This document shows positions 61 to 12,338 of a stretch of 64,000 nucleotides of DNA, piece by piece. Under the pieces are notes generated by a model that made no database searches, was not told where the DNA came from, and worked only from the letters and a program-made list of their open reading frames with translations. The stretch comes from Bacillales bacterium UBA1709 (lineage in GTDB: Bacteria; Bacillota_I; Bacilli_A; RFN20; UBA1709). The stretch is from positions 8,486 to 72,485 of the forward strand of contig DCJD01000010.1 of the NCBI GenBank assembly GCA_002317215.1. Direction: 5' to 3'. Positions within the stretch are counted from its first letter, which is position 1; each line of letters begins with the position of its first letter. The translations under genes and the position numbers were made by a program.

Positions 61-1083
61 TTAATATTTCATATATACTTTTTCAGCAAAACCTAATATA
101 TTATTAATCTTATATTCTGAATTATCTACTTTAATAGTTCCATTAAATCTACCAAATACTTGATGTTGCAAAGTTTTAATTACTAAGATATCGGTATTAG
201 TATAACGATCAATAATTGGAGTGAATTCTAAGTCAATTGATTTATCTTTACTGGTAAATTTCCATTTATCTAAGAATTTACATTCGCCATTTTCATCAAC
301 TGGTATTTCAAATTTAACATCTTCTAATTTATAGGCTTTATCTTTATAGAAGAACATATTCTCACTAGCAGCACTAGTGTTTCCAAAACCATATCCTAGA
401 TTAAATCCAATAGGGTTATTTTTATCGTCTACACCATTTAAACTACTCCAATACCAAGTATTTTTATATGTCCATACTCCTCTACCCCAATCAAGTACGC
501 CATTACAATCATCTAAAGATTCGATTCTATTGCCAAGCTTAACAACACCACTTGCTTTTAGACAATTAATCTTTTGATTATAGTAGAAATGTTTATCTTC
601 ATCCCAAGGGGTTGCAATTACCATTGTATCTTTAATTGGTTGTTCTAAGATAACATCTAATTCAAAGTCTTCTTCTTTATTAAATTTCTCATATTTAACA
701 ACTAGGTGTCTTTTCTTACCGTCATTATAGAATTTAAAATCAAATCCCTTACCAAAATGACTACAATCACCTATTTTACTGGTTTCTGGTAAAGACAATT
801 TTCCTTTACTTAAAGGACCCATTTTAGATTTGGTTACTTCCCATATTCCTTTATAATCTAGAAAACTTGCTGTACATAACCACATATATGAGTTATCAGC
901 AATAGTAACAGCTACTCCAAAATCATCATTACCAATATAATAATAGTCCCATTCTTTAATTCTATGCCATTTAGCCTTAATATCATTTCTATGATATTCT
1001 TTTACTAAATCAAAAGCATATCCAGCTTCATTTAGATTTCCTGCTTCGTTTAATAGTCTTCCTTTAGTTAACTTATGTTGCAT
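61..1083 (-). CDS. DUF2804 domain-containing protein (start moved to the Met of MQHKLTKGRL, which has a GGAGGAA RBS 7 nt upstream)
   Basis: ORF-track protein. Family assignment is by recalled similarity to DUF2804 proteins. There is no signal peptide. It sits downstream of apbE in the same orientation. Confidence 0.5.
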   Translation of the reverse strand: MQHKLTKGRLLNEAGNLNEAGYAFDLVKEYHRNDIKAKWHRIKEWDYYYIGNDDFGVAVTIADNSYMWLCTASFLDYKGIWEVTKSKMGPLSKGKLSLPETSKIGDCSHFGKGFDFKFYNDGKKRHLVVKYEKFNKEEDFELDVILEQPIKDTMVIATPWDEDKHFYYNQKINCLKASGVVKLGNRIESLDDCNGVLDWGRGVWTYKNTWYWSSLNGVDDKNNPIGFNLGYGFGNTSAASENMFFYKDKAYKLEDVKFEIPVDENGECKFLDKWKFTSKDKSIDLEFTPIIDRYTNTDILVIKTLQHQVFGRFNGTIKVDNSEYKINNILGFAEKVYMKY

Positions 1084-1084
1084 A

Positions 1085-2239
1085 TTATAGTTCCTCCTTA
1101 TTAATAATATTTGAATTAAAATCACCATTCATAGTGTCTTTAAAGCCTTTAGAATAAACACAATTATATTTATTTAAATCTAATTCATCATTAGAATAAT
1201 ATGGTTTTAATAATAGATAATCTATTTTCACGTTATAAGTATTTTCTATCTTATTTAATAAAGTTTTTGCTTCATTATCATCATTACAATTAAATATAGC
1301 AGTTGATAATGCATCTAGAAGAGTACTAGTAGCATTACTTGAGATTAAAGATACACTTCTATATGTTGGATTAGAATAACCAGTATTAGGATTTAAAATA
1401 TGTGAGATCCATGGATTTGATTTATCATATGAGAATATATTATCAGCGCTGGTAGATATTTTATAATCTTTATCAATTTCACTAATACAAATATATTCAT
1501 CTGAATTTGGTAAATTAAATCCTATATTATATTTACCATTATCTACATAAGGGTTATTTCCTACTAGACCAATAGTAGATTCACCAAGATTAATAATAGA
1601 GGAGGTATTTAAAGATTTGATATGATTATAAATCTTCTCTCCAATATATCCTTTTCCAATTCCACCAATTGATATTATTGGTTGTACTTCGTTATATTTA
1701 TTAATTGTTATTGATCTTGTGCTATCATCAAAAACAATTATATTATCTATATCATTATAACTTACTATTCCGTTTAATATTGTGCTAATTTCAGAAGAAG
1801 TAGGCATATTAGTATTTGTTGATAAATAAGATGAATATGCATCAATTAATCTTCCAATACATACATTAAACTTACCATCTGTTATCTTGCATAATTCAAC
1901 TGATGTTTTAATTAAATCATATAAATCATTATTACAGTTATTTATATATCCGCTATCATTTAAACTCTTTAAATTCTCTATTCCATCATAATCATGATAA
2001 CGATCAAAATAATGGGACATTGTTGTAATATCATTAATAATTGTATTCTTATTTTGCTGTAGAATATTATTATCATAGAAAGTAATTTTAGAAATAGTAT
2101 TCATTGGAAAAACATATTCATCTTGAATAAACTCTCCAGGTACAGTGAAATAATATTTTTTCTTATCATTATTAGCATTATTATTTTTGCAGGAGGCCAA
2201 TAATAAGATTGATACTAATCCAATTAATTTTCTTCTCAT
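1085..2239 (-). CDS. apbE: FAD:protein FMN transferase (ApbE family) lipoprotein, copy 1
   Basis: Lipobox LLLASC. The ApbE signature is ISIGGIGKGY (compare the GGIAKGY motif of flavin transferases). Confidence 0.75.
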   Translation of the reverse strand: MRRKLIGLVSILLLASCKNNNANNDKKKYYFTVPGEFIQDEYVFPMNTISKITFYDNNILQQNKNTIINDITTMSHYFDRYHDYDGIENLKSLNDSGYINNCNNDLYDLIKTSVELCKITDGKFNVCIGRLIDAYSSYLSTNTNMPTSSEISTILNGIVSYNDIDNIIVFDDSTRSITINKYNEVQPIISIGGIGKGYIGEKIYNHIKSLNTSSIINLGESTIGLVGNNPYVDNGKYNIGFNLPNSDEYICISEIDKDYKISTSADNIFSYDKSNPWISHILNPNTGYSNPTYRSVSLISSNATSTLLDALSTAIFNCNDDNEAKTLLNKIENTYNVKIDYLLLKPYYSNDELDLNKYNCVYSKGFKDTMNGDFNSNIINKEEL

Positions 2240-2253
2240 ATAATAATTATAAA

Positions 2254-2290
2254 ACGAGTAATAAAAAAAGTCAGTATATATACTGACTTT
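2254..2290. terminator. hairpin aaaagtcagtatatatactgacttttt downstream of the lipoprotein gene
   Basis: Inverted repeat plus T-tract. Confidence 0.5.
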
Positions 2291-2314
2291 TTAGCATACA
2301 AATAATATTAATTA

Positions 2315-3496
2315 TTATTGAGCTGCTTGAACTGCTGCATAAACATCAGCGTTTACACCAACGAAACCAGCTTTGCCAAATGCTTTAACATAGTTAGTTT
2401 GAGTAATTGTACAACCACTAATGTTTGTGAATGACATAGCACCGTATGAACCGTTAGTAACGTAATCTGATACAGTAACATCTTTACCTTCAACGAATTT
2501 TTCCATTGCTTCTGCTTGTTCATTCCATTCGCCACCGCCAACGATAACGCCTTTAGCAGCTGAAGTTGACTTCATACCATAAGCAGTACCTAATGCTTTC
2601 TTAGAAACATAAGCACCGTTGCTATAGTATTTAACATTTGTAACAACTGATGGAACTAATGTACTTGAATCAGTTGCATAAGTAACTACTAATGCATCGA
2701 ATTGAGCTGCAACAACTTTGTTACCTTTTAAGATAACTCCACACATATCGAATCCGACTTCTGTGCTTGGTAATCCATAGTTATAAGCAGGACCGTATTC
2801 ACAGCCTACACCAGTTGTAACTTCAGTATCTAAATCATATTTCTTAGATGCTTTGTGTTCACTAGCATATTTGATTGCTTTTACGTATTCGCCTAAGTTG
2901 ATTGTACAACCAGCTTTTAATCCAGCATCAGTTGCATAACCAGTTGCACCAACTGCTGCTTCAATTTCTGCAACAGTTTTGCCTTTACACCATGCTGAGA
3001 ATGCTTCGATTTGAGTATCTGCTTCTGCACCACCAGCGATAACGCCTTTAGCAGCTGAAGTATTCTTCATACCATAAGCATCACCTTGGTATAATTTTGA
3101 TGCTTGAGCATCTGCACTGTGAGTTTTTACACCATATACAGTTTCTTGTGTATCAATTTTATCTGCTGTACATTTGTGGTTATCAACGTGAGTTTGTGTC
3201 CAAGTAACTTGTGCACTTGTTCCTTCAACTTTACTTTGAACGCAGTCAAATCTAGCTGAAACAATTTTCTTAGTAACAGTGTTGAATGCGGCTACACAGT
3301 AAGTAACATCAACTTGTTCAGAAGCGAATGCAGGTGAATCTCCATTAGTCATGTTTGTAGCTGTTTTAGCTGAGAAACCTAAACCAATTTGCATCATTGG
3401 AGTAACTTTAGCATCTTCTTCTTTTTTACCACAACTTGCTAGTGATAAACCTAGAACTGCTGCACCAAATAATGCGACATATTTTCTAAATTTCAT
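2315..3496 (-). CDS. secreted lipoprotein with two tandem FMN-binding-like domains (PplA-like candidate flavinylation substrate)
   Basis: Signal peptide with lipobox LSLASC. There is an internal duplication: YGMKNTSAAKGVIAGG / YGMKSTSAAKGVIVGG are Gly-rich starts. Each repeat ends with LKAGCTINLGEYVKAI / NISGCTITQTNYVKAF, which resembles the D-x-x-SGAT-[IV]-TS flavinylation motif of FMN_bind domains. Confidence 0.55.
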   Translation of the reverse strand: MKFRKYVALFGAAVLGLSLASCGKKEEDAKVTPMMQIGLGFSAKTATNMTNGDSPAFASEQVDVTYCVAAFNTVTKKIVSARFDCVQSKVEGTSAQVTWTQTHVDNHKCTADKIDTQETVYGVKTHSADAQASKLYQGDAYGMKNTSAAKGVIAGGAEADTQIEAFSAWCKGKTVAEIEAAVGATGYATDAGLKAGCTINLGEYVKAIKYASEHKASKKYDLDTEVTTGVGCEYGPAYNYGLPSTEVGFDMCGVILKGNKVVAAQFDALVVTYATDSSTLVPSVVTNVKYYSNGAYVSKKALGTAYGMKSTSAAKGVIVGGGEWNEQAEAMEKFVEGKDVTVSDYVTNGSYGAMSFTNISGCTITQTNYVKAFGKAGFVGVNADVYAAVQAAQ

Positions 3497-3590
3497 TATT
3501 ATATTTCTCCTTTCAATTTAGATAATCTAATTTTACTATAAATATAGTAAAAAAGAAAAGAGTATTTTACAATTTTTATATGTTATGAAT

Positions 3591-4109
3591 TTATTTGATT
3601 AAAAATGCTTTATTCAATAGATTTAAGATAATAGTTGATAAGTATGCTATTAAAATACCAGATATAGTAGAAGAGATCATTAATATTGGTAAATAATTAA
3701 TCATTGATGGTAAAGAATACAATATAATAACACCAATTATTTGACCAATACTATGAAAGATAGCACTAGAGATTGATAATCCATATATACTTATTTTTTT
3801 AACGAAATAATAAATAATTAATACAAATATTGATGATAAGATATAACCTGAAAAAGATAATATTGATGCAGGACTTCCAAGACCAGTTCTTAATAATGCA
3901 ACTAGAAAAACTCTAAGAAATCCAATTAATAAATATTCTTTTGGAGAATAGAAATATAATACAGTTAATCCCATTAGATTAGCTAAACCAAGTTTTACCC
4001 CTGGAATTGGTATTGGTAAAGGAATCATTGATTCTAAAATATTCAAAACAATTCCTAATGCAAGGAACATTGATAATCTTGTTATTTTTTTAGTTTTTGA
4101 AACGTTCAT
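3591..4109 (-). CDS. Gx transporter family membrane protein (formerly annotated as heptaprenyl diphosphate synthase component I-like)
   Basis: Polytopic membrane protein with PLPIPIPGVKLGLANL motif. It is in its typical position next to the NusG-II protein and ApbE. Confidence 0.5.
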   Translation of the reverse strand: MNVSKTKKITRLSMFLALGIVLNILESMIPLPIPIPGVKLGLANLMGLTVLYFYSPKEYLLIGFLRVFLVALLRTGLGSPASILSFSGYILSSIFVLIIYYFVKKISIYGLSISSAIFHSIGQIIGVIILYSLPSMINYLPILMISSTISGILIAYLSTIILNLLNKAFLIK

Positions 4110-4113
4110 ATTC

Positions 4114-4542
4114 TTAACCTACTGATATTACATCATCTATTGATTCACTTTCGATACTAACAATTACTCCATTAGGAATGCAAACAATACTTTTACCTTT
4201 CTTTGAAATATATCCATATTTCTCGCAAGTATGATTAGGACAAGTAATATTGTGAACTCTAACTCCTTTATCAATTGATATTTCAACTGTAAAATCCCCG
4301 TATAAATCAGGGTAATCTTCCTTTTTAATAACATATACCATATCTTCTTTTAATTCATCGTAATTAATTTTAGCGATACTAGTATTTTGATATTGGATAT
4401 TAATAATTCTATCCCCATTGCTATTAGCTTTATAATTGACAATTATTATTGAAGAAACCGAAATAAGTATTGCTAATATAGCAATAAGAATATCAAATAT
4501 ATTAAACTTTAAAGAAAAATTATTTTTCATAAACACCTTCAA
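4114..4542 (-). CDS. NusG domain II-containing membrane-anchored protein
   Basis: N-terminal TM helix. Cys motif CPNHTC...C. Size and gene context (between ApbE and the Gx transporter) match this family. Confidence 0.45.
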   Translation of the reverse strand: MKVFMKNNFSLKFNIFDILIAILAILISVSSIIIVNYKANSNGDRIINIQYQNTSIAKINYDELKEDMVYVIKKEDYPDLYGDFTVEISIDKGVRVHNITCPNHTCEKYGYISKKGKSIVCIPNGVIVSIESESIDDVISVG

Positions 4543-5788
4543 TACCGTTTGCTAATTCTAAGGTATTATTAACGTTATTAGTATAATGAACTTTTAAAGA
4601 ATAATCTTTAAGATTTCCATTATTATATTTTTGAACTAAATAAAATGTATCAAATTGATAGTTTAAGTCCTTTCTTAATTTCATTCCTTCCTCAATACTC
4701 ATATTCATAAGTGCAGTTGATAAAATATCAAGATAAGCACTTGATAATGAATATGAAAGAATTGAGACAGATCTATAATAAGATTCTGGATATCCAGTAA
4801 ATGGATTAATAATGTGATGTCTATTTAAAACTAAAACTCCATCAATAACACAATAATGTTTATTAACTGTGTAGTTACCACTTGTTGAATAGTTAAACTG
4901 ATTTGAAACTTTAATGGAAAAAGCGCTCCCATCAAAACTATTTGGATCTCTTGTTTCGATACTCATTCCACCAGATTTTTTAGTATAAATTGGCTCAGAT
5001 AAACTTTCTAATGAACTTCCACCGCTAAATAATATCCCATCTTTATATCCATTATCAATTAGTTTTTGTTTAACTTTATCTGTTGCATATCCTTTTGCAA
5101 TACCACCTAAACTGATATATGGTCTATATGATGATGAATTTAAAATATTGTTAAACTTAACTGAATAGTTTTCTTCATTAAAAGTTAATTGATTATTGTA
5201 ATTTTCAAGGGTATTTGGAATAGCTGAAACAAGATTTTCCAGGCGTGTTTTAGCATCATTATTAACGTATGGGTCATAATCATAGACATCCATATAATTA
5301 TTATATGAACTGAAACACCCTTCCCAAAAATCTGTTAAACCACCTGTAAAAATATTAAACATACCATTGGTTAATGAATATGAACTATAGCAAAATTTCA
5401 GACAATCATATAAATCTTTATCAATTTGAATTTCTTCATTAGTTCCATAACTTTCATTGATTACTTTTAAATTATTAATCAAATTTCCATTTGAATCAGC
5501 ATAATAATAATGACGATCAAATAATTTGTGGAACCTAATTATTTCATCTGTATAAATATTAATAATATTGTTTTTAATTTCGTCGGCATTTTTATTTTTC
5601 TTATCAAAAAAATATCTCACAACCATTGAAGTATTAAAAGGATCAACTTGGTGTCCTATTGTACAATTTGTATCGTCATAACCAATGATTTCATCTTGAA
5701 TTGTAAATGATTGCCAAGACCCTTTTCTATCACATGATGTTAAACATAAAATCGAAATTATACTTAACAATAAAACTTTCTTTTTCAT
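4520..5788 (-). CDS. apbE: FAD:protein FMN transferase (ApbE family) lipoprotein, copy 2
   Basis: Lipobox LCLTSC. ApbE motif ISLGGIAKGYATD. Confidence 0.75.
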   Translation of the reverse strand: MKKKVLLLSIISILCLTSCDRKGSWQSFTIQDEIIGYDDTNCTIGHQVDPFNTSMVVRYFFDKKNKNADEIKNNIINIYTDEIIRFHKLFDRHYYYADSNGNLINNLKVINESYGTNEEIQIDKDLYDCLKFCYSSYSLTNGMFNIFTGGLTDFWEGCFSSYNNYMDVYDYDPYVNNDAKTRLENLVSAIPNTLENYNNQLTFNEENYSVKFNNILNSSSYRPYISLGGIAKGYATDKVKQKLIDNGYKDGILFSGGSSLESLSEPIYTKKSGGMSIETRDPNSFDGSAFSIKVSNQFNYSTSGNYTVNKHYCVIDGVLVLNRHHIINPFTGYPESYYRSVSILSYSLSSAYLDILSTALMNMSIEEGMKLRKDLNYQFDTFYLVQKYNNGNLKDYSLKVHYTNNVNNTLELANGIEGVYEK

Positions 5789-5828: not shown

Positions 5829-5849
5829 AAGGAGTTATATTAACTCCTT
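5829..5849. terminator. hairpin aaggagttatattaactcctt downstream of the rnfB-like gene (terminator or attenuator between the rnf operon and apbE)
   Basis: Inverted repeat followed by T-rich tract on the minus strand. Confidence 0.45.
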
Positions 5850-5857
5850 AACTTTAA

Positions 5858-6184
5858 CTATTTAATATCGTTTAATACACTTCCATCAGGACCTGGTGTA
5901 GATTTTAGATATTCAATTATTTCAGCTAATTTTTCTTTCTTAAGTGGTTTACATAAAGAAACTTGTTTATTTGAACCACTAATAATAGAATCTGCCATAC
6001 CTGAACATCCAGGATATCCGCATCCGCCACAGTTTGCTCCTGGTAACATTGAAAGTAATACTTCTAATCTTGGATCAGCTTTAACTGATAAATATTTATC
6101 TGCAACTGCTAATAATAATCCAAGGAATGCTCCAATGCCAAGTGTAACTACTAACGCTTTAATAATTACAATAATTGTTTCCAT
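5858..6184 (-). CDS. rnfB: RnfB-like subunit, truncated: membrane anchor plus N-terminal 4Fe-4S (FeS) domain only, with no polyferredoxin domains
   Basis: The sequence LPGANCGGCGYPGCSGMADSIISG...C matches the RnfB N-terminal Fe-S domain pattern. At 108 aa it is far shorter than typical RnfB. Confidence 0.6.
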   Translation of the reverse strand: METIIVIIKALVVTLGIGAFLGLLLAVADKYLSVKADPRLEVLLSMLPGANCGGCGYPGCSGMADSIISGSNKQVSLCKPLKKEKLAEIIEYLKSTPGPDGSVLNDIK

Positions 6185-6185
6185 T

Positions 6186-6353
6186 TTAGTTCTCCTTTTT
6201 ATGATTAGCGCAGGACGTTATTTGACATCCCTCGCAATTTTCTGATAAATTAACGCATCCTTCTGGTTTAGGTGTTCTTTGGTTTAATACATAACTGAAT
6301 ATGAACAAACCACTACATATTCCTAAAGCCACAATGGATAATATAATTTTCAT
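6186..6353 (-). CDS. 55-aa membrane micro-protein with C-x6-C-x2-C-x4-C motif (MKIILSIVALGICSGLFIFSYVLNQRTPKPEGCVNLSENCEGCQITSCANHKKEN); not in the ORF track
   Basis: Hand-translated. Its ATG overlaps the rnfA stop (TAATG). Its 3' end carries the AAGGAG RBS and an ATG overlap for the rnfB-like gene, so it is translationally coupled on both sides. Confidence 0.5.
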   Translation of the reverse strand: MKIILSIVALGICSGLFIFSYVLNQRTPKPEGCVNLSENCEGCQITSCANHKKEN

Positions 6354-6964
6354 TACAAGCTTAATCCCATAAAGGCTGCAAATGCTAGAGCCATTAAGGA
6401 TGTTGTAATAAGAGCAATGCTGTTTCCTTTGAATGCTTCTGGAGTTTCTTTATTGCTATCAATTCTTACTCTGATGAATGAGAATAGAGTAATAACTAAC
6501 ATATAGCCAAGAGAAGTGAAGATAGCATAAACTAACATATTGATAAATGTATATTCAAATGTTATAACTCCATTTAATTCTGTGTATGCAGCAACTTTTT
6601 GTGCAACGAATAATACAACACAGTTTGTTGTAATTAAAGGTAAATAAATACCTAAAGCTTTATAAAGAGACACAAGATATTTCTTCATAAAGAATTCAAC
6701 GAATTGAACGAATGCTGCGATAACTAAGATAAATATAACTAATTGTAGGAAATCTAATCCAAGTGGAACTAAGATATATTTTTCTAAAGCGAAACATATA
6801 ATAGCACTCATAGTAACTACGAAAGTAAGTGCTAATCCCATACCAATAGCATTGCTAGGTTTTTTAGAAATACCTAAGAATGGACAAATTCCTAAGAAAT
6901 TAGAAAGAATAATATTACTTGAGAATAAACAAGCAATAATGATTGCAAATATACTCATATTCAA
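6353..6964 (-). CDS. rnfA: Rnf complex subunit A
   Basis: Motifs GICPFLG and IYLPLITTNC. Six-TM protein of RnfA/NqrE type. Confidence 0.8.
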   Translation of the reverse strand: MNMSIFAIIIACLFSSNIILSNFLGICPFLGISKKPSNAIGMGLALTFVVTMSAIICFALEKYILVPLGLDFLQLVIFILVIAAFVQFVEFFMKKYLVSLYKALGIYLPLITTNCVVLFVAQKVAAYTELNGVITFEYTFINMLVYAIFTSLGYMLVITLFSFIRVRIDSNKETPEAFKGNSIALITTSLMALAFAAFMGLSL

Positions 6965-6970
6965 TTCCTC

Positions 6971-7837
6971 CTATTTACTTTCTGCAGCTTTTGCTGCTTT
7001 TTTATTTGCGATTGCTTTTCTAGCGCCATTAAAGCCAGCAACGCAGAAACCAAGTACTAAGAAAGCACCTGATGGTTGAGCTAATAAACCAATTTCATAT
7101 GGTGAAGAGAAAGATTGATTTGCTGCGAGTTTTAATGCATCAACAACTTCTTTAGTACCATATGTTTCATCAGTAATAACTTTTAATTCTTTTGTAATCT
7201 TGCTTAGATTATAACCATTATTTGAATATTCAGAGATTAATTCTTTTAATGAATTAACATCACCAATTTTAAATTCGGTGATTAAAGCATCATAAACAAC
7301 TTTATCTTCTTTTGCTAAAGGAATAATTCTTGTAATAGAAGTAACGTTTCCTTCAAGATCTTTCATTGTGATAACACCAGTACCTAAGATTTCTCTTAAT
7401 GCAGCAACAATTGTTAATGCAAAGAAGAAACCAAGGGAGATACCAATGGCATCCATGATAGAATTTACTACACTATTTTTAGAAGCGTAGCTTTCAGCTC
7501 TTCCTAAAATAATACAGTTAACAACGATTAATTGTAGATAACTTCCTAGAGTTGTATAAATTCCAGGAGCATAAGCGTTTACGAATAATGAAACTGCTGT
7601 AACAATAGTAGCAATAATAACAATGTATACAGGAATTCTTATCTCACTAGGAGTAAATTTAGCAATTAATGAAATAGAAATATTTGACATTAATAATACT
7701 AAGAATACACAAGCACTCATACCAATAGCACTGTAAATTGAACTACTAGTTGCTAATACTGGACACATTCCAAGGAATAAGACAAATGTTGGGTTTTCAT
7801 TTATAATCCCGTTTAAAATAATTTTTAATTTTTTCAT
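6971..7837 (-). CDS. rnfE: Rnf complex subunit E with an inserted soluble domain of about 80 aa before the last TM helix
   Basis: GMCPVLA motif. RnfE/NqrD-like TM pattern. The insertion is MKDLEGNV...ANQSFSSPYE. Confidence 0.7.
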   Translation of the reverse strand: MKKLKIILNGIINENPTFVLFLGMCPVLATSSSIYSAIGMSACVFLVLLMSNISISLIAKFTPSEIRIPVYIVIIATIVTAVSLFVNAYAPGIYTTLGSYLQLIVVNCIILGRAESYASKNSVVNSIMDAIGISLGFFFALTIVAALREILGTGVITMKDLEGNVTSITRIIPLAKEDKVVYDALITEFKIGDVNSLKELISEYSNNGYNLSKITKELKVITDETYGTKEVVDALKLAANQSFSSPYEIGLLAQPSGAFLVLGFCVAGFNGARKAIANKKAAKAAESK

Positions 7838-7853
7838 ATCTTATACTCCTTTC

Positions 7854-8387
7854 CTACCATGTCATAGCCATATAGTCAGCACGACATAATTCAATAGCTT
7901 TTGCTAAAGGTTCTCCAGTAGCTGATTTTCCAGCCATAGCAGAAGTGTAAGTTGAATACTCTAGAAGTTTTGTTTGCGCGCTTAAACCACTAACAAGATC
8001 TCCCATAGATTCAATTAAATCTTTACCATATCCAGAGTCTTCGCCGTTTGCGATATCTGAATATCCAACGTATTTGTTATCTGCGAAAGCAACAACAAAT
8101 TTAATAGTATTATTTCTTCCGGAAATAGACATGTTGTAACAAGCGCCATTAACAGTTTTGTTAACAACTTTCTTTGTACATCCTTCAAAATTAGGAGTAT
8201 CAACTACTTCAAAATCTGAAGCTGATGCATTATATGCTGAGAATAATTCAACATATGCTTGATTTGATTTAGCTAATTCGTTGCTTGCAATTTTCTTTTC
8301 AGTTGATTTATAAACAACTGCTAATAATAATCCGCAAGCTCCTACTACTGTACCTAAGAATAGGGGTAATTTTAAAAACTTATTCAT
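7854..8387 (-). CDS. rnfG: Rnf complex subunit G (FMN-binding subunit, divergent)
   Basis: N-terminal TM. Its position between rnfD and rnfE. A C-terminal GKSAT motif sits where SGAT is normally found. Confidence 0.6.
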   Translation of the reverse strand: MNKFLKLPLFLGTVVGACGLLLAVVYKSTEKKIASNELAKSNQAYVELFSAYNASASDFEVVDTPNFEGCTKKVVNKTVNGACYNMSISGRNNTIKFVVAFADNKYVGYSDIANGEDSGYGKDLIESMGDLVSGLSAQTKLLEYSTYTSAMAGKSATGEPLAKAIELCRADYMAMTW

Positions 8388-8399
8388 ATTTAATTCCTC

Positions 8400-10160
8400 C
8401 TATTTACTTTCTAATGCATATAATTGATATGCTTTATTTACAAGATCTTTAATGATTTGTGGCGAGTATGTAGATTTTGAAGCAGTAGTAGCTTTACCGC
8501 AAACTAGTGCATCAACAGCAGCTTGACCATTGCCAACTACTTGTTCGCTAACAAACTTACCATAATATGAAGTATCAGTTCCAGCCATCTTTTCATCAAT
8601 GAAACCAACACCTTGAACCTTATCTTGTTTATCAATAACAACTAATCCCACTACATTTAATGGAATTGGGTATCCTTCAGCTGAGATGCTTGCTTTGCTA
8701 CCCATTGCTTTTTCATAATCAATAACGTAAGCATATGCAACTACTTCATCACCATTTTTAACAAGATATTTACTATCTAATGTAGATTCATTACTGAATG
8801 TATAACCTACTTCGACGTCATCACTATATTTGCAATATCTTTCATTTTCATTTAAAGCTACTGCTGATTGTAATTGTGCATCTTGTGCATAATTTAATCC
8901 GTCTTTATTAACGACACCAATGTGAGTTACTTGACCGCTTGCCATAAATCCTAAGCAGATTGCAGCAATAACAACACCTAATCCTAAACCAGCAACTTTA
9001 ACTGGATAGTGTCTATTTGTCTTGCCTTTAATTGCAGCATCAATAGCAGGGCTAATCAAGTTTGCTAAAGCAATTGAGAACATTGCACCTTCTGGATAAC
9101 CGCCTTTAATTCTAATTAAAACAGTCATAAATCCAGCAAATATTGCACAGATGCTCTTTCCTAAGCTTGAAGTTGGTCCAGTAACTGGATCAGTTAGCAT
9201 AAATACCGCACCAAAGGCAACGCCGCCTAAACCGATGCTAGCGACTAAATATGCTAATACGCTATTGCCAGTTAATGTAGCAATAACAACAGCTGATAAT
9301 GCAACAGTTCCTAAGTAGAATGCTGGTGTTCTCCAGTTAATAACTCCAAGAACTGATAATACAATACCTAAGCCTAAAATTAATACAGTGAATGTTTCGC
9401 CTAAAGCACCAACATATTCACCGAATAATATATTCTCTAAAGTGAAACCTTCAATTAATGAATTTTCAATAACAGCAGCACCTACAGGTCTTGTAGTGTA
9501 AATCCAAAGTTGCGAATTGTTATATACACTAGTAATTGTAGAACCTGTAGCAGCATCAACACCAACAGCAGTTGCTGCTTCGCCTGCTAATTCTGCTGCA
9601 GAAACAGTTTGGATGATTTCAGGAGTTGCTAATGCACTTCCGAAACATAATCCAACGAAAATTCTTGCCATAATTGCAGGATTAAAGATGTTTTTACCAA
9701 AACCACCAAATACATTTTTGCAAACTAATGTTGCAAATACTGAACCAACAATAATTACATAGTAGCTAGTAAATACTGGTAGAGTTAAGGCAAAAATAAT
9801 CCCGGTAATATAAGAATAGTTATGAACTATTGTATGAATGATATCTTTACCTAAAGATATATTCTTGTGTGTTTTATGAACACATAATGTATGGATAACA
9901 TCACATACAATTGAAGTAACAACAGCAACAATAACATTTAGTATTGCTTTTAATCCATAATCAACATATGGGAGTTGTTCTTCAATATCTAATTCTAAAT
10001 TTTCTAATTCAATATATTCATTAATCTTATCGGATAAATTAAAGTAATAAATAATTCCACTTACCCATACAACAACAAGTGCTGCAAGTAAGATTAACAT
10101 TATTTTTAATGTTGAATTTTTGCTTCTTTGATAAGGAGCAGGATTTGTTCTAAATGCCAT
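8400..10160 (-). CDS. rnfD: Rnf complex subunit D with a long C-terminal extension of about 200 aa
   Basis: NqrB/RnfD-like membrane core with VDAATGSTITS motif. The C-terminal extension contains VDALVCGKATTAS, which is FMN_bind-like. Confidence 0.7.
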   Translation of the reverse strand: MAFRTNPAPYQRSKNSTLKIMLILLAALVVVWVSGIIYYFNLSDKINEYIELENLELDIEEQLPYVDYGLKAILNVIVAVVTSIVCDVIHTLCVHKTHKNISLGKDIIHTIVHNYSYITGIIFALTLPVFTSYYVIIVGSVFATLVCKNVFGGFGKNIFNPAIMARIFVGLCFGSALATPEIIQTVSAAELAGEAATAVGVDAATGSTITSVYNNSQLWIYTTRPVGAAVIENSLIEGFTLENILFGEYVGALGETFTVLILGLGIVLSVLGVINWRTPAFYLGTVALSAVVIATLTGNSVLAYLVASIGLGGVAFGAVFMLTDPVTGPTSSLGKSICAIFAGFMTVLIRIKGGYPEGAMFSIALANLISPAIDAAIKGKTNRHYPVKVAGLGLGVVIAAICLGFMASGQVTHIGVVNKDGLNYAQDAQLQSAVALNENERYCKYSDDVEVGYTFSNESTLDSKYLVKNGDEVVAYAYVIDYEKAMGSKASISAEGYPIPLNVVGLVVIDKQDKVQGVGFIDEKMAGTDTSYYGKFVSEQVVGNGQAAVDALVCGKATTASKSTYSPQIIKDLVNKAYQLYALESK

Positions 10161-10174
10161 AAATTCTTTCCTCC

Positions 10175-11488
10175 TTATTTCTTAGGCATGCTAAGTTTAA
10201 CAATAGCCTTGCCTTTTTTAATTGTCTCAGTAACATCAATTTTACTTGGACAAATATAACTACACATTCCACATTCAATACAACTTAAGATGTCGTATTT
10301 TTTCATACCTTCTACATCTCTTTTTTCAGCTGCTTCTTTTAAAGCAACTGGTTGTAAATATGCTGGACAATGTGCAGTACATTTACCACATCTTAAACAT
10401 GCATCTGCTGTAGCTTGGCAATATTTTAAGACTGTGATTGATCCCATTTGCATTAACATTGGGAATGTATCAAATGATACTGCCTTTGAACACATTGGTC
10501 CACCAGGAATAAAGTTAATATCACCTTCTACTACTCCACCACAAACTTTAATTAATTCGTTTGATAGAGTACCAACAGGGATTAAAACGTTATGTGGGTT
10601 AACTATACCATTACCACTAACTGTAACTAATCTAGTTGCAACAGTCTTACCAGTTGATAAAGTTCTACCAAGTTCAATAACAGTAGTTGCATTATTAACA
10701 GCAACTTTAACTTCACTTGGTAATGTTTTATATTCCTTATGGAATATATTTCTAATTAAGACTCTTTCCCAACCCATTGGGTAAGCATCTTTTGTCTCAA
10801 CTAATCTAATATTAGGATGATCGGCTAATTTTGCTAATACAGCTTCTTTAACTTCATCTTTGTGAACCTTGATAGCAATGATAGCTTCTTTAGCACCGCT
10901 TGCTTTCATTAAGTATTCACAACCTAATAATAATTCGTCAACTCTTTGTTGCATTACGATAAAGTCAGTAGTTAAGTATGGTTCACACTCAATACCGTTA
11001 ACAAGTAATGTTTCAATTTCACTAGATCCATTATATTTAATGTAAGTTGGGAATCCAGCTCCGCCCATACCTACTAGACCAGCCTCTTTAATAGCATCTC
11101 TGATTTTTTCAGCACTATCTTTTAAAGTTACTGTCTTTAATGGTTTTTCCTCATCGTATTTACCATCATTTTCGATAACTACATGAGGGATTGCACGTCC
11201 AACTTGTGGAGAGAAAACATTTTCATTAGCAACAACTTTTCCACTTACTGAAGAGTAAATTGGAACATAGAAATCGCTTCTTAAACCAATTTTAGTTCCA
11301 ACCTTGACCTTGTCCCCTTCTTTTACATCAAATGTAATAGGTTTACCATTTGGGGCCATTGTTGGAAAATAAACTTTTTTAGGAGCATTATTTCCACTTA
11401 CTAATGAGATTATTTCTTCGTGCTTGGTTAATTCTTTGTGGCCATCAATATGTTTTTGGCCTTTTGAACTAAATAAACTCATTTTCAT
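10175..11488 (-). CDS. rnfC: Rnf complex subunit C (NADH-binding, two [4Fe-4S] clusters)
   Basis: GMGGAGFPT nucleotide-binding motif. Cluster motifs CLRCGKCTAHCP and CIECGMCSYICP. Confidence 0.85.
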   Translation of the reverse strand: MKMSLFSSKGQKHIDGHKELTKHEEIISLVSGNNAPKKVYFPTMAPNGKPITFDVKEGDKVKVGTKIGLRSDFYVPIYSSVSGKVVANENVFSPQVGRAIPHVVIENDGKYDEEKPLKTVTLKDSAEKIRDAIKEAGLVGMGGAGFPTYIKYNGSSEIETLLVNGIECEPYLTTDFIVMQQRVDELLLGCEYLMKASGAKEAIIAIKVHKDEVKEAVLAKLADHPNIRLVETKDAYPMGWERVLIRNIFHKEYKTLPSEVKVAVNNATTVIELGRTLSTGKTVATRLVTVSGNGIVNPHNVLIPVGTLSNELIKVCGGVVEGDINFIPGGPMCSKAVSFDTFPMLMQMGSITVLKYCQATADACLRCGKCTAHCPAYLQPVALKEAAEKRDVEGMKKYDILSCIECGMCSYICPSKIDVTETIKKGKAIVKLSMPKK

Positions 11489-11495
11489 TCACCTC

Positions 11496-11514
11496 TTGTG
11501 ATATTATATCACAA
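11496..11514. promoter_or_regulatory. 19-bp perfect palindrome TTGTGATATTATATCACAA immediately upstream of the rnfC RBS; candidate Rex- or CRP/FNR-type operator
   Basis: Read directly from the sequence. It resembles the Rex box TTGTGAA-N4-TTCACAA and the CRP half-sites TGTGA/TCACA. Confidence 0.4.
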
Positions 11515-11623
11515 CACTTTTTCTCTTATCTACTAAAATTAAACATTTATAATTTTATAAATAAAAATTATAGGAGATAAGAAAGAAAAGTGAATGAAAA
11601 TGAGTATTAAAAAAAGACTATTT

Positions 11624-12301
11624 TTAAACAATCTTTAATGTTCTTAAATAGTCTTTTTTACCTTGTTCTATTCTATTTGATTCTATAGCTTTTTGAATTG
11701 ATTTATTCTGAATCCATTTATCTAATTTTTTTGATTCTATTAGTCTAATTGTTTGATCATATTGCTTAATTAAGGCTAAAGAATAATACCATGCGATTGC
11801 AATATTGATGTAATATTCATTTGATTTAATTGTACTTAAAATATCTAAAAATTTTGGATCAAAATCTTCATCTAAAAATAGATTCATAAGACATATAATT
11901 CCAAACCTAACCGTATATGTTTTATCTGATTTTAACCACTCTAAAATATACTCTAAAATATCATCTTTATGCTTCTAAAAAACTAGTGGCATAATAGTAT
12001 CACTTGTGGCCCAATTATCAATATATGGAAGAAAGGAAATAATGCGTGATTTTGCTTCTTCATAATTCTTAATTCTTTGAATTAAGAATCCATGTATTAG
12101 ATTTTCTTCATAATATTCATGAGGTAATTCATCGAAAAAATCATCTATTTTATCCTTAGAAAATTCCTTAACTATTTCTCTTAATTTTGGTACTCTTACA
12201 CCAATGATATTTTCTAATTTATAAGTAGGTGTTAACTTACTAATAAATAACTTATATTTAGCATCAGAATACTCATATAATTTGTCTAAAATTTCTTTCA
12301 T
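11624..12301 (-). pseudogene. DNA alkylation repair protein (AlkD/HEAT-repeat family) interrupted by an in-frame TAG at 11975..11977
   Basis: ORFs 11975..12301 and 11624..11887 are in the same frame. Reading through the TAG gives one continuous AlkD-like protein of about 225 aa (...IMPLVF*KHKDDILEYILEWLKSDKTYTVRFGIICLMNLFLDEDF...). Confidence 0.6.
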
Positions 12302-12338
12302 ATTTTTTCAATCTAAATTATATACATAAAAGCCCCAA

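Follow-up and report, generated by a model that had tools for sequence, protein, structure and literature searches.

We investigated the rnf operon in a stretch of 64,000 nucleotides (nt) from Bacillales bacterium UBA1709 (contig DCJD01000010.1, positions 8,486 to 72,485; G+C = 29.6%), hereafter the window. Among anaerobes, Rnf is a central ion pump that serves to conserve energy. In the window, the operon lies complete on the minus strand in the order rnfC, rnfD, a gene in the rnfG position, rnfE, rnfA, a 55-amino-acid (aa) open reading frame (ORF) and rnfB. Here, we focus on the small ORF (6186–6353; 168 nt including the stop codon), whose product we call the micro-protein, and on the short rnfB that follows it (5858–6184; 108 aa). 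The stop codon of rnfA (6353–6964; the gene caller puts its start at ATG 6958) overlaps the start of the micro-ORF: the junction reads GCTTGTAATGAAAATT on the minus strand, and in its TAATG one base is shared, the last A of the rnfA stop being the A of the ATG. At the other junction, AAAAAGGAGAACTAAAATGGAA, direct reading of the sequence places the Shine–Dalgarno sequence of rnfB, AAGGAG (6192–6197, minus strand), within the last codons of the micro-ORF, 7 nt 5' of the rnfB ATG (6182–6184, minus strand), and a single base separates that ATG from the micro-ORF stop TAA (6186–6188, minus strand). The micro-protein, MKIILSIVALGICSGLFIFSYVLNQRTPKPEGCVNLSENCEGCQITSCANHKKEN, is bitopic, with a single hydrophobic transmembrane (TM) helix (residues ~3–23; 6285–6347, minus strand; from hydropathy and an AlphaFold2 (AF2) model) and a juxtamembrane four-cysteine motif, Cys33-x6-Cys40-x2-Cys43-x4-Cys48 (6210–6257, minus strand), preceded by the conserved Y-x2-N-x-[KR]-T-P-x-P-x-G-C-E. 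A preliminary description of this stretch, made from the letters alone, had reported these coordinates, the TAATG overlap, the ribosome-binding site, and the helix with its C-x6-C-x2-C-x4-C motif, and all of them are indeed read in the sequence, as are the overlapping or near-overlapping start and stop signals from which it had proposed translational coupling on both sides of the micro-ORF.

The RnfB of the window consists of an N-terminal TM helix and a single [4Fe-4S] domain of family PF04060 (residues 47–80; 5945–6046, minus strand; E = 3.6e-11, 43 bits against a cutoff of 23), with the cysteines C52-x2-C55-x4-C60-x17-C78. Its residues 1–30 are hydrophobic and align with the membrane anchor of the solved RnfB chains 7zc6_B and 9eri_B. 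Against TIGR01944, it scored 54.5 bits, below the cutoff of 68.7, because only the first half of the model (positions 4–91 of 190) is covered. In this protein we found neither a Fer4 match nor a C-x2-C-x2-C-x3-C motif, that is, no C-terminal ferredoxin-type domain with at least two clusters. A short-RnfB profile aligned to approximately residues 3–90 of the solved chains compared (7zc6_B, 274 aa; 9eri_B, 333 aa; 8ahx_B, 174 aa), with E values of 3e-17 to 4e-12; short RnfB covers residues 7–87 of 7zc6_B and 3–90 of 9eri_B. The earlier reading of this RnfB as an anchor plus one iron–sulfur (Fe-S) domain was thus borne out. In canonical RnfB, the N-terminal region is a TM helix plus a small, flexibly tethered one-cluster domain, and the C-terminal part carries 2–7 [4Fe-4S] clusters and accepts ferredoxin (PMC12174285, a 2025 review). 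Short RnfB keeps all four PF04060 cysteines but lacks the entire C-terminal domain, ending at the linker motif EYLxxTPGPDG. To our knowledge, every Rnf complex that has been solved or studied biochemically has an RnfB with a multi-cluster ferredoxin-acceptor domain.

Short RnfB is a large natural family of 90–116 aa with one membrane helix and a single [4Fe-4S] domain. A database search gave 556 relatives, the best 120 of which were all 101–116 aa, and 15 diverse short RnfBs, when aligned, had in common the four cluster cysteines and EYLxxTPGPDG just before the stop. Four contigs of independent origin, including ones from JGI and Logan, carried the exact RnfB of the window. The preliminary description had kept in view an assembly error that, once corrected, would restore a longer RnfB; such an artefact, in which a frameshift or mis-join cut a normal rnfB and created the small ORF, has a practically negligible probability. 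It is ruled out by the identity across four contigs, by the length and end motif of the family (more than 100 clusters of 101–116-aa RnfB), and by the lack of ferredoxin-like sequence downstream; a terminator-like hairpin also follows the stop, and no point in favour of an artefact was found. Downstream of short rnfB, no ferredoxin-domain coding sequence occurred in any frame. A split RnfB was likewise rejected for the window and seven short-RnfB loci, in which no separate ferredoxin-domain gene stood beside rnfB. The separate polyferredoxin that the preliminary description thought might replace the missing domains was not found adjoining the short rnfB genes examined or within the 64-kb window, where C-x2-C-x2-C-x3-C motifs are confined to RnfC.

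We then turn to the micro-protein itself, for which a single-sequence search of a word-indexed protein database matched only the query, so that a profile was required to find relatives. Profile searching recovered 758 clusters at 90% identity. Among the best 120 of these 758 matches (55–92 aa), 110 had the spacing C-x6-C-x2-C-x4-C and 10 had C-x9-C-x2-C-x4-C. The frame and its cysteine spacing, on whose conservation in relatives the preliminary description had staked the ORF, were therefore conserved in 120 of 120 best matches. HMMER, run exhaustively over 1.84 billion representatives, yielded 371 micro-protein representatives at 50% identity; the best 150 of these were nearly all 49–101 aa, and among them none was fused to RnfA or RnfB and none bridged to a larger family. 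Two apparent domain fusions (P0384 and P0374) join unrelated N-terminal sequence to a micro-protein tail through the junction peptides ...MCIRDRN... and ...VYKRQ..., which resemble translated sequencing-adapter sequence, and were treated as assembly chimeras. A further candidate fusion, P0302, was an unrelated Cys-repeat protein.

Fifteen micro-ORFs derived from the loci, with a mean identity of 35%, share the helix, P30 and the four cysteines. In 40 database sequences, P28, P30, G32 and all four cysteines were invariant, and Y21, N24, T27 and E34 were at least 90% conserved. The ORF is kept across Erysipelotrichaceae, Solobacterium, Anaerorhabdus, Catenisphaera, Izemoplasma and Onthovivens at 30–60% identity. 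Compared with locus L081, the closest relative with DNA (60% identity), the proportions of nonsynonymous and synonymous differences (pN and pS) were 0.25 and 0.70, and the corresponding rate ratio (dN/dS) was ~0.15 for the micro-ORF, 0.10 for rnfA and 0.39 for rnfB, ratios that are approximate owing to saturated dS. These comparisons identify the micro-ORF as a genuine gene on which purifying selection acts across orders. The preliminary description had called it unannotated, which does not hold everywhere: the JGI annotation calls it as a gene in the source metagenome contig (L086), and NCBI lists its homologues under the label 'hypothetical protein'. It had also offered a remnant of RnfB domain rearrangement as one origin. 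As a decaying leftover or chance ORF, a non-functional spacer produced when RnfB was truncated, this is very improbable and is refuted by conservation: the ORF is small, the window protein has no family match and its motif is weakly RnfB-like, but frame, length, helix and four cysteines persist at the identities given above, pN is far below pS, and the family counts 371 representatives. The weak similarity to the RnfB N-terminus may still reflect an origin by partial duplication of rnfB.

The genomic context ties the micro gene to short RnfB. A one-genome-per-species scan with the short-RnfB profile gave at least 80 rnf loci, which are a sample rather than a census. Among the 80 listed, an ORF of 54–91 aa lies between rnfA and rnfB in 14; 13 of these were found by tblastn with the micro-protein of the window (33–59 bits) and one by ORF inspection. 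The metagenome-assembled genomes carrying them are labelled Bacilli bacterium, Erysipelotrichaceae, Solobacterium, Anaerorhabdus, Candidatus Izemoplasma and Candidatus Onthovivens. The small ORF with a TM helix and four cysteines was present in 14 of the 18 short-RnfB loci and in none of the 62 long-RnfB loci, in which the gap between rnfA and rnfB is ~15 nt, and no such ORF was found elsewhere in the 66 other rnf loci. Within the loci sampled, the micro gene is thus exclusive to rnf operons with a short RnfB. Four homologues from different branches and the RnfB of the window served as entry points to six further records: five relatives' loci, fetched independently, and the re-fetched window contig all showed rnfCDGEA, the micro gene and an rnfB of 90–108 aa (6/6), and start and stop signals touched or overlapped around the micro gene in all six loci with gene tables. 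The link holds both where RnfD and RnfE are extended (the window and L081) and where they are of ordinary length (L082, L084 and L085); in Catenisphaera (L082) and L084, RnfD has 375–379 aa and RnfE 212–217 aa. In every gene table examined, the neighbours of the micro gene were rnf genes, with no nqrF nearby and no adjoining feoB.

Four short-RnfB loci among those listed (L004, L020, L036 and L054; RnfB of 101–104 aa) are without the micro gene. On a rough neighbour-joining tree of RnfA (no bootstraps), one branch separates all carriers, together with L004 and L020, from the rest, so the micro gene seems to have been gained a single time and lost once, as far as this tree can be read. L004 and L020 are a Bacilli/Firmicutes pair nested among the carriers, whereas L036 and L054 are Brevinematales (Spirochaetota), of independent origin. 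Because the RnfA of the Brevinematales pair branches among those of long-RnfB loci, RnfB has, on this phylogeny, been truncated at least twice. Co-occurrence with short RnfB is not independent statistical support, because all carriers fall in one RnfA clan, and we set it aside as a statistical argument.

The topology signal of the micro-protein is clear. From a 40-sequence alignment, AF2 predicted a helix at residues 2–26 (predicted local distance difference test, pLDDT, ~96), and the mean hydropathy of the helix was 2.7. Across 120 homologues, the mean number of K and R was 0.6 on the N side versus 2.7 among the first 15 C-side residues. Because of this charge bias, the protein is predicted to be N-out and C-in, so that its cysteines would face the cytoplasm, as the cluster domain of RnfB does. 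The first cysteine is only ~10 residues from the membrane, after the conserved boundary residues Tyr21 and Asn24 and then [KR]-T-P-x-P-x-G-C-E; the segment after the last cysteine varies among homologues, with many K, E, D and N residues.

We compared the micro-protein with known families. No Pfam or NCBIfam match above threshold was found for any micro-protein scanned, and the window protein had no match; comparison with solved structures gave only spurious TM matches (E > 0.4). Of three candidate profiles, the N-terminal module of RnfB scored best (hhalign probability, 58–84%; E = 7e-6 to 1e-4), with an N-terminal anchor in both and the helix and N-C-x-G-C-x4-C in register; scores were 26–34, and reversed and column-shuffled controls reached at most 13. 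Unlike this module, the micro-protein has its fourth cysteine 6–9 residues upstream rather than 16–18 downstream, a linker from helix to motif that is ~20 residues shorter, and no PF04060 match. That the micro gene and rnfB are neighbours would fit an origin of the micro gene in a partial tandem duplication of rnfB. The second candidate was NqrM (PF04400, formerly DUF539), the maturation factor of Na+-NQR, which was represented first by a single sequence (PF04400, 84 bits) and then by five genuine NqrM genes from annotated records. NqrM shares the single TM helix and four conserved cysteines, at weak profile similarity (hhalign probability, 28–58%; E = 1e-4 to 6e-4), with the helix, Y-x3-[KR]-[KR]-[TS] and the four cysteines aligned, the first cysteine at ~residue 33 and hence at equal distance from the membrane, a juxtamembrane basic K/R-T/S motif, and a gene that belongs to the operon of an Rnf-homologous complex. 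It differs in its cysteine spacing (C-x11-C-x-C-x3-C versus C-x6/9-C-x2-C-x4-C) and in position: in two annotated examples, nqrM closes the nqr cluster at its 3' end, preceded by apbE (L090) or nqrF (L091), whereas the micro gene lies between rnfA and rnfB, in Bacilli. PF04400 itself had no match among the 15, 9 and 40 micro-proteins scanned, at E values up to 10 or 1. NqrM is, moreover, encoded with nqr genes and confined to bacteria that possess NQR, whereas the gene tables examined place the micro gene among rnf genes. The records L088, L089 and L092, drawn from a plasmid collection, are evidently chromosomes (Aeromonas, 4.9 Mb; Proteus, 4.1 Mb; Neisseria, 2.2 Mb), and their nqrM genes are missing from the distributed annotation. 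Because an NqrM-versus-RnfB control scores just 15, the resemblances to RnfB and to NqrM both exceed, in profile comparison, the generic background of a helix plus cysteines.

The third candidate, PF12669, comprises small bitopic peptides with a Cys-rich cytoplasmic tail that are common in Firmicutes. Below-threshold matches were seen in 17 of 40 micro-proteins (best E = 2.8e-4), and one UniRef entry bears the PF12669 name; however, the scores listed were 8–17 bits against a gathering cutoff of 27. PF12669 proteins have the motif Cx3-5Cx2-3Cx6-8C, and their genes follow feoB or form fusions with it (PMC8749426), in contrast to the C-x6/9-C-x2-C-x4-C motif of the micro-protein and to gene tables in which no feoB adjoins it. 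Homology to the RnfB N-terminus, NqrM or PF12669 is unproven, and on present sequences the micro-protein is best treated as its own family. By description, not by sequence, it can also be likened to RnfH, a lineage-specific accessory subunit associated with RnfB in RNF1 of Azotobacter vinelandii, which is a precedent for an extra Rnf subunit; RnfH, however, is soluble and cofactor-free, and its partner RnfB keeps the ferredoxin-type clusters (PMC12174285). A full-text literature search found no description of a one-cluster RnfB or of the micro-protein. An Rnf with a minimal RnfB and an extra four-cysteine micro-protein is a new version of a known system, not a new kind.

We propose, at a probability of roughly 40%, that the micro-protein is a small Fe-S-binding accessory subunit on the electron-entry side of the complex formed by RnfB and RnfA/RnfE. 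It would be a lineage-specific seventh component of Rnf complexes with a one-cluster RnfB. With the N-terminus outside, the rigid T-P-x-P-x-G linker would set the four cysteines ~10 residues from the cytoplasmic membrane surface, where they may hold an Fe-S cluster. We suggest a cluster because the spacing equals the C-x2-C-x4-C core of the RnfB cluster site and resembles the C-x6-C-x2-C-x5-C loop that binds [4Fe-4S] in endonuclease III and MutY. Translational coupling would have the micro-protein made stoichiometrically with RnfA and RnfB, beside which it would stay as a permanent resident of the complex. There it could serve as a fixed docking or relay site between a soluble donor, such as ferredoxin, and both the mobile one-cluster domain of RnfB and the intramembrane [2Fe-2S] cluster of RnfA/RnfE, and so would partly substitute for the missing polyferredoxin domain. 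We favour a subunit because of the cysteine core spacing, the coupling to rnfA and rnfB, the occurrence only where the polyferredoxin domain is absent, and the precedent of RnfH. RnfA and RnfE also retain their cluster cysteines (Cys27 and Cys115 of RnfA, in G-I-C27-P and N-C115; Cys25 and Cys108 of RnfE, in G-M-C25-P and N-C108), the four of which are taken, by homology, as ligands of the intramembrane [2Fe-2S] cluster (PMC12174285). The extra metal-binding subunit put forward in the preliminary description is thereby the leading, if unproven, reading of the sequence. Still more tentatively, we extend it to the Bacilli of Erysipelotrichales, Izemoplasmatales and RF39 type, in which a structurally distinct Rnf may have arisen, its polyferredoxin input domain replaced by a one-cluster RnfB plus an Fe-S micro-subunit of ~60 residues derived from partial rnfB duplication.

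Several points weigh against a resident Fe-S subunit, whose metal binding and residence in the complex are predictions. The existence of L004, L020, L036 and L054 counts as well: since short RnfBs occur without the micro gene, a one-cluster RnfB apparently works alone. The co-occurrence of micro gene and short RnfB is largely one evolutionary event and carries little statistical weight. AF2 gave no confident fold for the Cys tail (pLDDT 46–59), and with the helices removed the match to RnfB shrank to a 13–15-column Cys motif (score 17 against a shuffle maximum of 14). Finally, NqrM, the sole protein built in this way that has been studied experimentally among NQR and RNF systems, acts in maturation and is no subunit.

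The main rival, a serious one that the preliminary description did not consider and that we hold somewhat less probable than a subunit, is an NqrM-like role in which the micro-protein is a transient, membrane-anchored carrier of Fe or Fe-S that installs the RnfA–RnfE intramembrane [2Fe-2S] cluster and stays outside the mature complex. NqrM has been proposed to install the cluster of NqrD/E in Na+-NQR, and its architecture is equal: one N-terminal TM helix, four cytoplasmic cysteines, ~55–75 aa and an in-operon gene (PMC12174285). The hhalign resemblance to NqrM described above, beyond its control, agrees with such a role, as do the first cysteine at residue 33 in both proteins, 11–12 residues past the boundary Tyr, and the acidic residues that flank cysteines in both (GCE in the micro-protein; CDC..PCD in NqrM). 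A tail that AF2 does not fold with confidence fits a flexible carrier, the gene directly follows rnfE–rnfA, which encode the client subunits, and loss in L004 and L020 would be easier for a helper than for a core subunit. Yet the micro-protein escapes PF04400 even at permissive E values, whereas an NqrM sequence scores 84 bits, and its cysteine spacing is unlike that of NqrM. Moreover, none of the 62 long-RnfB loci listed carries such a gene, nor does the Rnf/NQR review describe one (PMC12174285), and the exclusive link to short RnfB would have to be a coincidence of shared ancestry.

More doubtful is a non-redox role, in which the four cysteines would form a knuckle that binds Zn or another metal, or would form disulfides, and the micro-protein would act as a structural or regulatory cap that stabilises the RnfA/RnfB interface or tunes activity. 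Four-cysteine knuckles of this size commonly bind Zn, and RnfH shows that a cofactor-free accessory Rnf subunit exists. The conserved juxtamembrane Y/N/T-P-x-P-G residues suggest a specific protein contact and more than a ligand set, and the weak resemblance of 17 of 40 members to PF12669 is to Cys-rich membrane peptides whose role is undefined. Set against this, the C-x2-C-x4-C core has its counterpart in the known [4Fe-4S] site of the protein encoded next to it, the operon is one of Fe-S and flavin electron transfer in anaerobes, and AF2, which is usually confident on Zn knuckles, was not so here.

The remaining genes of the operon, all on the minus strand, include rnfC (10175–11488; 437 aa; TIGR01945, 314.5 bits, above cutoff) and rnfD (8400–10160; 586 aa); Pfam and NCBIfam identified both, as well as rnfE and rnfA. 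RnfD carries a flavinylation-type motif, D-A-A-T-G-S-T, at residue 205, and is longer than the usual ~330–380 aa by a C-terminal extension of ~200 aa. The extension weakly matches FMN_bind (PF04205, E = 0.0022, residues 503–579) and has G-K-A-T-T-A-S in place of the canonical [ST]GA[ST] flavinylation motif; the same fusion occurs in the close relative L081 (576 aa) but not in Catenisphaera, L084 or L085. The gene in the rnfG position (7854–8387; 177 aa) is highly divergent and was assigned from its place in the operon, with a weak TIGR01947 match (E = 0.0014); its product has no Pfam FMN_bind match and shows A-G-K-S-A-T-G at the expected site of the flavinylation motif. RnfE (6971–7837; 288 aa) contains a hydrophilic insertion of ~70–90 aa (~residues 160–250) that interrupts the Rnf-Nqr domain, the RnfE of relatives being 212–253 aa.

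Eight nt past the rnfB stop lies a terminator-like hairpin (5829–5849, minus strand) with a 9-bp stem followed by TTCTTTTATT, identified as a consensus match only; between rnfB and apbE it reads AAGGAGTTA-ATA-TAACTCCTT, then a T-rich tract. The rnfCDGEA–micro–rnfB genes may be a transcription unit separate from the flavinylation genes beyond it, or one attenuated before them. A conserved cluster lies 3' of rnfB (1085–5788, minus strand, in the window; also 8707–13527 in L081 and 7524–9394 in L085) and comprises genes for an ApbE lipoprotein, a NusG_II-domain protein, a membrane protein of Hpre_diP_synt_I/ECF-S-like type, a 393-aa lipoprotein and a second ApbE, which suggests a link between the Rnf of the window and extracytosolic flavinylated proteins. 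The predicted 393-aa lipoprotein (2315–3496, minus strand) has no Pfam or NCBIfam match and an internal duplication in which AYGMK[NS]TSAAKGVI.GG occurs twice; it may be a novel flavinylation substrate. At the equivalent position, L081 has a 352-aa gene without Pfam matches. Just past the second apbE is a gene for a DUF2804 protein (61–1128, minus strand; E = 1.8e-118), and in L085 a DUF2804 domain fused to a major facilitator superfamily transporter (9887–12307) stands near the rnf–apbE cluster, so that the DUF2804 protein may be a recurrent neighbour of this cluster.

A large clade, including abundant gut Erysipelotrichaceae, thus has a one-cluster RnfB together with a conserved four-cysteine membrane micro-protein. 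Its presence in Erysipelotrichaceae-type gut and sediment bacteria points to an undescribed way of building or feeding Rnf. If the micro-protein is a subunit, textbook models of electron entry into Rnf miss the carrier clade, no smaller Fe-S subunit would be known from a respiratory-type ion pump, and the two-piece module would represent a new electron-entry architecture. If it is NqrM-like, it would be the first known case of an assembly factor dedicated to Rnf and would bear on the open question of how the intramembrane [2Fe-2S] cluster is inserted in Rnf/NQR-type pumps. Both readings are directly testable, since homologues are assigned to named taxa that can presumably be cultivated, among them Catenisphaera adipataccumulans. 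In either case, the example shows that a conserved component of a central bioenergetic operon can be a micro-protein too short for the usual ORF length cutoffs.

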